Source of the DNA: Promethearchaeati archaeon SRVP18_Atabeyarchaeia-1
GTDB taxonomy: Archaea > Asgardarchaeota > Atabeyarchaeia > Atabeyarchaeales > Atabeyarchaeaceae
NCBI GenBank assembly: GCA_037308085.1
Contig: CP147779.1
Span: 416,001-480,000, forward strand
Reading direction: 5' to 3'
Length of the DNA: 64,000 nt
Part shown: positions 41,801 to 42,207 of the stretch, piece after piece
Layout: every line of letters begins with the position of its first letter
Position numbering within the stretch: the stretch's first letter is position 1
Notes under the pieces: generated by a model
The model's database searches: none
What the model was told of the DNA's origin: nothing
What the model saw: only the letters and a program-made list of their open reading frames with translations
Program-made: the position numbers and the translations under genes

Positions 41801-42207
41801 AAAACCCGCAGGCGCGCGAGACAGGTCGGGTTTTATCTCTTGGGGGTGCAGGGTCGCCTGAAGGTAAGGTACCCTCAGTACGAGAGGGCTGGAGTGCTTT
41901 GTGCACCTGCTCCGTAAGAGGAACGGGGTGCCGTGGCCTCTGGTGTACCGGTTGTCCGAGCGGGCAACGCCGGGCAGCTAAGCCGCAAGTGATAAGGGCT
42001 GAAAGCATCTAAGCCCGAAACACTACCTGAAAAGAGGCGACCAATCCGCAGTTCCTGGCTTTTCAAGCCACACTGGGACCCGTGAGGGTCACGGTTACTG
42101 TGGACGAGGGCTCCGGAAGAAGACCGGGTTGATAGGGCAGCGGTGTACGCCTCAAGCTTCGGCGAGAGGTTCAGCCGGCTGCTACTAATCGCTCGAGCGT
42201 GCAGGCC
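38867..42207 (+). rRNA. rrl: 23S rRNA with five BHB introns (40804-40836, 40965-41013, 41580-41611, 41715-41820, 41885-41918); ends approximate
   Basis: Conserved 23S motifs (AGTACCGTGAGGGAAAG, GGGATAACAG, CCTCGATGTCGG, GCTGAAAGCATCTAAG); terminal pairing GGTCTGACATGC/GCGTGCAGGCC. Confidence 0.96.

Follow-up and report, generated by a model that had tools for sequence, protein, structure and literature searches.

The 23S rRNA gene of Atabeyarchaeia-1 very probably carries a 34-nt ORF-less archaeal intron of the hairpin, bulge-helix-bulge (BHB) type, which lies in the GAGA tetraloop of helix 95, within the sarcin-ricin loop (abbreviated SRL), and is removed by splicing (41885..41918, + strand). 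Atabeyarchaeia-1 (Atabeyarchaeum deiterrae; hereafter G000) was recovered from Californian wetland soil and has a complete genome (PMC11291895). This study analyzed a stretch of 64,000 nt of that genome, which is referred to as the window. An archaeal rRNA operon lies in the window, where Rfam matches placed the SSU rRNA gene at 32464-34889, the LSU rRNA gene at 38867-42208, and the RNase P RNA at 44808-45204. The LSU gene, which hosts the intron (38867..42208, + strand), matched RF02540 over its full length with 2703 bits, and it was the only match in the complete genome; the 23S rRNA gene of G000 is single-copy. The 16S gene at 32464-34889 is approximately 950 nt longer than the Rfam model and must therefore contain large inserts.

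The location of the insert was examined by comparison with the archaeal LSU model of Rfam and with intron-less homologues. The sequence read at window 41877-41925 comprises AGTACGAG, followed by 34 nt and then AGGAAC. The Rfam model aligned through this region with a high posterior probability. In the apical loop of helix 95, 37 bases of the gene stood against 3 model positions, and the loop with these extra bases tops the hairpin carrying AGUACGAGAGG. Alignment with the intron-less 23S genes of four other Asgard archaea and E. coli revealed a 34-nt gap at the same place, and removing the 34 nt restored AGUACGAGAGGAAC, which is the conserved mature sequence. The 5' exon side of helix 95 (41868..41884, + strand), ending in AGUACGAG (E. 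coli A2654-G2661), was assigned from the Rfam alignment and the E. coli 23S alignment, and the 3' exon side (41919..41932, + strand), which runs from AGGAAC (A2662 onward), from the Rfam alignment and the alignment with relatives. A preliminary description of this DNA had reported two exon segments separated by 34 nt, a UACG/CGUA helix, and AGA bulges, and had located the insert in the SRL. Its reading of the sequence agrees with ours, and both the Rfam model and the alignment with intron-less homologues place the 34 nt in that loop.

We then placed contigs of four metatranscriptome runs, obtained from wetland and peat in four studies, on positions 41700-42400. The results revealed that a contig of each of the four runs joined 41882 to 41917 and skipped 34 bases. 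The joint was anchored by 31-52 nt on its shorter side, and the two aligned pieces of the best contig, 134 nt together, contained 0 and 1 differences, respectively. Five bases were ambiguous at the joint, and these were exactly the AGAGG repeat that flanks the insert. Positions 41892-41915 were covered in none of the runs, whereas the flanks were covered to a depth of hundreds to thousands. The contigs of two runs differed from the window at 0-1 positions, and those of the other two runs differed at 4-5 positions and matched a variant known from metagenomes. The substitutions at 41849 and 41851 in two RNA contigs are those of this fourth DNA variant, which is represented by three metagenome contigs and itself bears the intron.

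An internal control was provided by positions 42036-42095, where the gene is 60 nt longer than the Rfam model; this extension lies in the 3' domain, in the helix 98 region, and is shared by relatives. RNA contigs covered this extension, so not every insert is missing from the RNA. Because it is covered by RNA contigs and common to relatives, the extension is an expansion and not an intron. For the SRL insert, a retained rRNA expansion segment was rejected because RNA cover was missing over 41892-41915. The absence of cover at 41700-41795 and beyond 42252 carries no weight, and two further joints, from 42014 to 42113 and from 42021 to 42144, were set aside as having short sides and probably deriving from other organisms. 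The RNA data are assembled environmental contigs, with DNA and RNA from different samples, and precursors, ends, and the excised intron are invisible in them; as these contigs show, the SRL intron is removed and its exons are joined in the RNA. The preliminary description had further proposed that the insert is a spliced intron and that ribosome function requires its removal. The first proposal is borne out by contigs of four runs that lack the 34 nt and have the exons joined, and the second by the absence of the insert from the RNA contigs together with the single copy of the gene. Since G000 has one 23S gene, every large subunit depends on the SRL splice.

To characterize the intron within its family, we compared four variants, namely those of G000, the MAG LC30 (same genus), Atabeyarchaeia-2 (same family), and the metagenome type. 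Five columns varied, and all five were unpaired (hypergeometric P = 0.007): the internal loop and the hairpin loop hold two each, and the remaining one belongs to the 3' bulge. The helices were invariant, and no compensatory changes were found among the four variants. All six DNA sources at 94-100% identity, which span two genera and comprise G000, LC30, Atabeyarchaeia-2, and the three metagenome contigs, keep the insert; no DNA copy without it was found in the Atabeyarchaeia family among these sources. In an exact scan of the genome collection for the 5' junction, LC30 was the only match. The SRL intron is also the sole one of the five 23S introns of G000 that is present in all three species (two genera), and on the basis of this distribution it is probably the oldest of them and ancestral in the family.

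The fold of the intron was computed as the minimum-free-energy structure of 41866-41936; all elements are on the + strand. The 5' strand of the central helix is UACG of the exon (U2656-G2659; 41879..41882), which pairs at 4/4 positions with the 3' strand CGUA of the intron (41913..41916), as indicated by the fold and the pairing score. The 5' bulge AG/A (41883..41885) has its predicted cut after 41884 (G2661), at the sole one of six candidate junctions with complete central and inner pairing. According to the fold and the junction scoring, the 3' bulge AG/A (41917..41919), which is AA/A in LC30, has its predicted cut after 41918. An inner helix, GGGC/GCUC, and an apical hairpin, GUGC-loop-GCAC, occupy 41886..41912, and the unpaired state of the variable columns is consistent with this part of the fold. 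The BHB fold was both the minimum-free-energy and the consensus structure in all four intron variants.

The intron thus contains the BHB core, with two 3-nt bulges, a 4-bp helix between them, and a predicted cut between the second and third bases of both bulges. It departs from the strict hBHBh' form: pairing is complete in the inner helix (4/4) but reaches only 1/4 in the outer helix. The exon-side AG at 41877-78 faces AGAG, which places the 3' bulge inside a 2x4 internal loop and leaves the outer helix weak. Because the exon-side helix is weak, the motif is classed as the relaxed HBh' form, in which only the central and inner helices are strong. This form is accepted in archaea with heteromeric endonucleases (PMC4090602; PMC12397907). 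The fold energy of 41866-41936 was not better than that of shuffled sequences (z = -1.2), and thermodynamics alone is therefore no evidence for the BHB. Similarly, BHB geometry alone did not exceed chance (128 instances in the gene and 105-149 in shuffles, from approximately 323,000 candidate pairs); since it is equally common in shuffles, it counts only in combination with homology-defined boundaries. No group I or group II intron family scored above the Rfam gathering threshold in the window. A group I identity was rejected for the SRL insert, which is only 34 nt long and has no Rfam group I match.

The exact junction required separate analysis. The direct repeat AGAGG flanks the insert (41883-87 and 41917-21), and six junctions (G2659/A2660 to G2664/A2665) therefore restore the same mature loop. 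We scored these junctions by placing the cut after the second base of 3-nt bulges that lie 3' of each strand of the 4-bp helix, which is the BHB geometry implied by the tRNA 37/38 case in PMC4090602. Cuts at 41884/41885 and 41918/41919 yielded 4/4 central and 4/4 inner pairs, whereas the other five junctions yielded 0-2/4 central pairs. The chance of a perfect fit for one among six homology-defined junctions is approximately 0.002. The same rule produced one perfect solution at each of the four other 23S inserts, including the insert near position 2497, whose junction is unambiguous, and it also agreed with the SRL intron of another Asgard genus (g39), for which empty alleles define the junction. 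In LC30, the 3' bulge reads AAA and not AGA, and four junctions are compatible, compared with six in G000; junctions 5' of G2661 are therefore excluded, provided that the conserved loop is restored.

In the GAGA tetraloop, the first A (E. coli A2660, rat A4324) is the target of depurination by ricin, and the alpha-sarcin cut falls 3' of the second G (E. coli G2661/A2662, rat G4325/A4326). We take the GAG/A junction of the SRL intron to be this alpha-sarcin bond. Bonds were numbered by their position within GAGA; the E. coli 23S copy that was aligned (2905 nt) sets the loop at +1 relative to the standard numbering. The BHB rule, with LC30 narrowing the choice, makes it likely that the junction lies exactly at GAG/A (G2661/A2662). 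The preliminary description had equated the junction with this bond. The assignment stands as the sole fit of the BHB rule among six junctions, and its word "exactly" holds as an inference that LC30 narrows but does not prove.

To place these observations in a wider context, 400 Asgard genomes were sampled, and the 3' part of the LSU gene was matched in 202 of them. Among those 202, an interrupted SRL occurred only in the Atabeyarchaeia family and in the genus coded g39 (family f23). The g39 insert is unrelated, is 61-65 nt long, and lies between GGUAC and GAGAGGACC, that is, at C2658/G2659. It is present in three species (L033, L035, and L037), and the site is empty in two congeners (L069 and L070). 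The insert fits the BHB rule, with a central helix CGGU/GCCA that includes one C-A mismatch, bulges AC/A and AA/G, and an inner helix of 5+4 bp in which two pairs have changed on both sides between species. The minimum-energy fold of the g39 insert prefers an alternative hairpin over the BHB; we retained the BHB model on two grounds, namely that empty alleles determine the junction and that two inner-helix pairs have changed on both sides.

Several other features were observed in this survey. One g39 genome (L049, G113:C98) carries a 69-nt insert in helix 89; GAGCUC and AUAUCGACC flank it, and it is adjacent to the peptidyl-transferase center. At another locus (L042, G342:C43, approximately 1335-1345 of the contig), approximately 105 nt comprising helices 95-97, the SRL included, is missing from the LSU gene, and GGAUGUCUG runs directly into CGCUGAAUGCAUCUAAG. 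No other SRL was found in this genome, which is 87% complete, and the loss could reflect a deletion, a pseudogene, or faulty assembly. The impression that several families have no intact SRL was false and resulted from a 14-mer pattern, AGTACGAGAGGAAC, that was too strict. Families f6, f7, f12, and f33 read GGUACGAGAGGAAC, in which G occupies the A2654 position, and they carry no insert. Contig ends, scaffold gaps, and bacterial contamination accounted for the other apparent absences of the SRL. One Asgard genome reads AGUCCGAGAGG; either the loop, invariant elsewhere, has changed in this genome, or the sequence contains an error. The GGUACGAGAGGAAC and AGUCCGAGAGG readings together concern loci L009, L014, L016, L021, L030, L032, and L063.

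Four further BHB introns were identified in the same 23S gene, all on the + strand. Alignment and the BHB rule defined a 33-nt mini-intron near E. coli 1782 (40804..40836), a 49-nt mini-intron near 1927 (40965..41013), and a 32-nt mini-intron near 2497 (41580..41611); Rfam, alignment, and the BHB rule defined a 106-nt intron in the helix 93 loop near 2599 (41715..41820). The first two are absent from Atabeyarchaeia-2. The last two are specific to G000 and absent from both LC30 and Atabeyarchaeia-2. The three mini-introns are ORF-less, and the BHB cutting rule fits them perfectly. The bulges of the 106-nt intron are AG/A and AG/A, and this intron is therefore also predicted to be cut at GAG/A, as is the SRL intron. 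Loose RNA-contig ends at 41818 fit splicing of the 106-nt intron, and RNA contigs show its exons joined. These joined exons could come from LC30-like relatives, whose DNA is without this intron, and are therefore no proof of its splicing. The helix 93 and SRL introns, both checked against the model structure, sit at hairpin tips. The 1782, 1927, and 2497 sites resemble classical hot spots of rRNA introns, which in CPR bacteria are listed at 1917-1952 and 2593-2604. A blastn-short search of the whole genome detected no second copy of any of the five 23S introns, and there is therefore no sign of a recent duplication or a donor.

The RNA evidence was weighed against two other readings. The joined contigs might derive from close relatives that have no insert in their rDNA, in which case the difference would be a polymorphism at the DNA level and the intron would remain unspliced. 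The comparison used RNA contigs and DNA sources that were unmatched by sample, and the presence of an SRL intron does vary between species within g39. However, six of the six DNA sources across two genera contain the insert, no insert-free copy was found in the family, and the RNA contigs match two insert-bearing DNA variants at 99-100%. Moreover, an unspliced loop would be unable to form the GAGA tetraloop, and this organism has a single 23S gene; we consider this reading very unlikely. Even less credible is the excision of the insert with its ends left unjoined, which would yield a fragmented 23S rRNA similar to those with bacterial intervening sequences or to Pyrococcus helix 98. Archaeal excision without ligation does exist (PMC7758197). 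Nevertheless, contigs in all four runs bridge the joint, with anchors of 31-52 nt on its shorter side. A break at the GAG/A bond is, in addition, how alpha-sarcin inactivates ribosomes. Splicing with exon joining is therefore retained as the preferred reading.

The position and origin of the junction were evaluated in the same manner. The cut may fall at another bond of the AGAGG repeat (in the range from G2661/A2662 to G2664/A2665, or further 5' in G000), which would make the match to alpha-sarcin only apparent. Several junctions yield an identical mature sequence in G000 and in LC30, and the RNA joint is ambiguous over 5 bases, which leaves room for such a shift; in addition, the exon side of the motif is relaxed, and broad-specificity endonucleases accept odd bulges (PMC12397907). 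Only GAG/A attains full central and inner pairing, however, and the rule that selects it also predicts the unambiguous junction near 2497 and the g39 junction fixed by empty alleles; a different bond is thus unlikely, with an appreciable residual chance. The preliminary description had gone on to suggest intron gain by ligation into ribotoxin-cut sites, whereby RNA would have been ligated into a cut SRL and then copied back into DNA. In favor of this origin, the junction given by the BHB rule coincides with the alpha-sarcin bond, the ends that sarcin leaves (a cyclic phosphate and a 5'-OH) are RtcB substrates, and RtcB is present in the genome. By contrast, four introns of the same build occupy non-toxin sites in the same gene, and SRL introns are spread over three bonds, with the g39 intron at C2658/G2659 and CPR group I introns at 2657. 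No RVT_1 reverse transcriptase was found in the complete genome, no paralogous intron copy is available there as a possible donor, and the hairpin-tip position is common to the SRL and helix 93 introns. We regard this origin as extremely improbable; it is unsupported and unnecessary, and no special mechanism is required to explain why the junction falls on the sarcin bond. The SRL has been entered at three or more different bonds by two intron classes.

We further searched the genome for the enzymes that splicing at GAG/A would involve. PF01974, the catalytic domain of the splicing endonuclease, was found in two genes (104.5 and 65.5 bits), which are located outside the window at genome positions 202619-202873 (- strand) and 624258-624518 (+ strand). 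One EndA paralogue has 209 aa and contains the Tyr/His/Lys motifs, and the other has 241 aa and is without the His (motifs read by eye). This composition suggests that the pair forms a catalytic and structural alpha-beta heterotetramer, of the type that accepts relaxed motifs. PF01139 (RtcB) had one match, with 583.5 bits and a 490-aa open frame.

On the basis of these components, a mechanism can be proposed. In the precursor, exon UACG (U2656-G2659) would pair with CGUA at the 3' end of the intron and form the 4-bp central helix. A heterotetramer-type EndA would cleave both bulges 3' of their second base, with the two cuts following G2661 and 41918, and RtcB would then join the exons. The SRL could presumably fold only after this joining, and the excised intron would probably be a circle. 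The intron, ancestral in the family, is probably kept because its imprecise loss would destroy an essential loop. A bolder proposal is that the SRL splice is not just a parasite that the cell tolerates: since formation of the GTPase-activating loop must wait for EndA and RtcB, splicing could license large subunits late in their maturation. We consider this proposal improbable. If true, it would explain why the SRL intron alone of the five is kept in all three species, and a corollary would be that RtcB routinely makes the bond that alpha-sarcin-type toxins break.

Staphylothermus marinus contains two 23S introns of approximately 55 nt. Crenarchaeal 16S introns of the "HP" class, found in Thermoproteales and Desulfurococcales, are under approximately 50 nt (PMC4496867). 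The SRL intron resembles these small crenarchaeal rRNA introns in its size class, the absence of an ORF, its hairpin with a BHB core, and its highly conserved rRNA site, and presumably also in its removal by a splicing endonuclease and a ligase. It differs from them in its Asgard wetland-soil host, its site in the SRL GAGA tetraloop, and its weak outer helix (HBh'). In CPR/Patescibacteria, site 23IS14 (23S position 2657) frequently contains group I introns, often with LAGLIDADG_1 genes (Tsurumaki et al. 2024, PMC11270868). Those introns likewise interrupt the SRL and must be spliced for a working ribosome; however, they are bacterial and self-splicing, are several hundred bases long, often encode a homing endonuclease, lie 4-5 bases upstream, and rely on unrelated chemistry. 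The g39 SRL intron shares with that of G000 the ORF-less BHB form, the bulged-G-region exon bases in the central helix, the strong inner helix, and the weak outer helix, but it is 61-65 nt long, unrelated in sequence, located at C2658/G2659, and polymorphic in one genus, and it is documented here by DNA sequence.

Introns occur in 92-95% of Atabeyarchaeia tRNA genes (PMC11291895). The SRL intron is similar to the non-canonical tRNA introns of Atabeyarchaeia and Freyarchaeia in that these are present in the same genomes, depend on the same presumed enzymes, are short, and occupy unusual positions (PMC11291895; bioRxiv 10.64898/2026.10.13.758758). The main texts of both papers concern tRNA genes only and do not mention 23S rRNA or rRNA introns. 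Pyrococcus helix 98 is excised with the ends left open after circularisation, which yields a permuted rRNA (PMC7758197). As with the SRL intron, a piece of domain VI/VII is removed late, and the authors of that study discuss possible quality control (PMC7758197); unlike in Pyrococcus, the SRL exons are rejoined. A full-text literature search, with many subscription papers outside its reach, found no report of an archaeal SRL intron.

In these lineages, inserts of this type disrupt rRNA annotation, the use of primers, and alignments. The SRL emerges as a recurrent intron site for different intron classes (2657, 2658/2659, and 2661/2662). With the present findings, the intron abundance published for tRNA in Atabeyarchaeia reaches rRNA as well, at a highly conserved and functionally critical ribosome loop, in a host that belongs to the archaeal group closest to eukaryotes. 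In this organism, every ribosome depends on protein-catalyzed RNA splicing, which likely takes place at the very bond attacked by alpha-sarcin.
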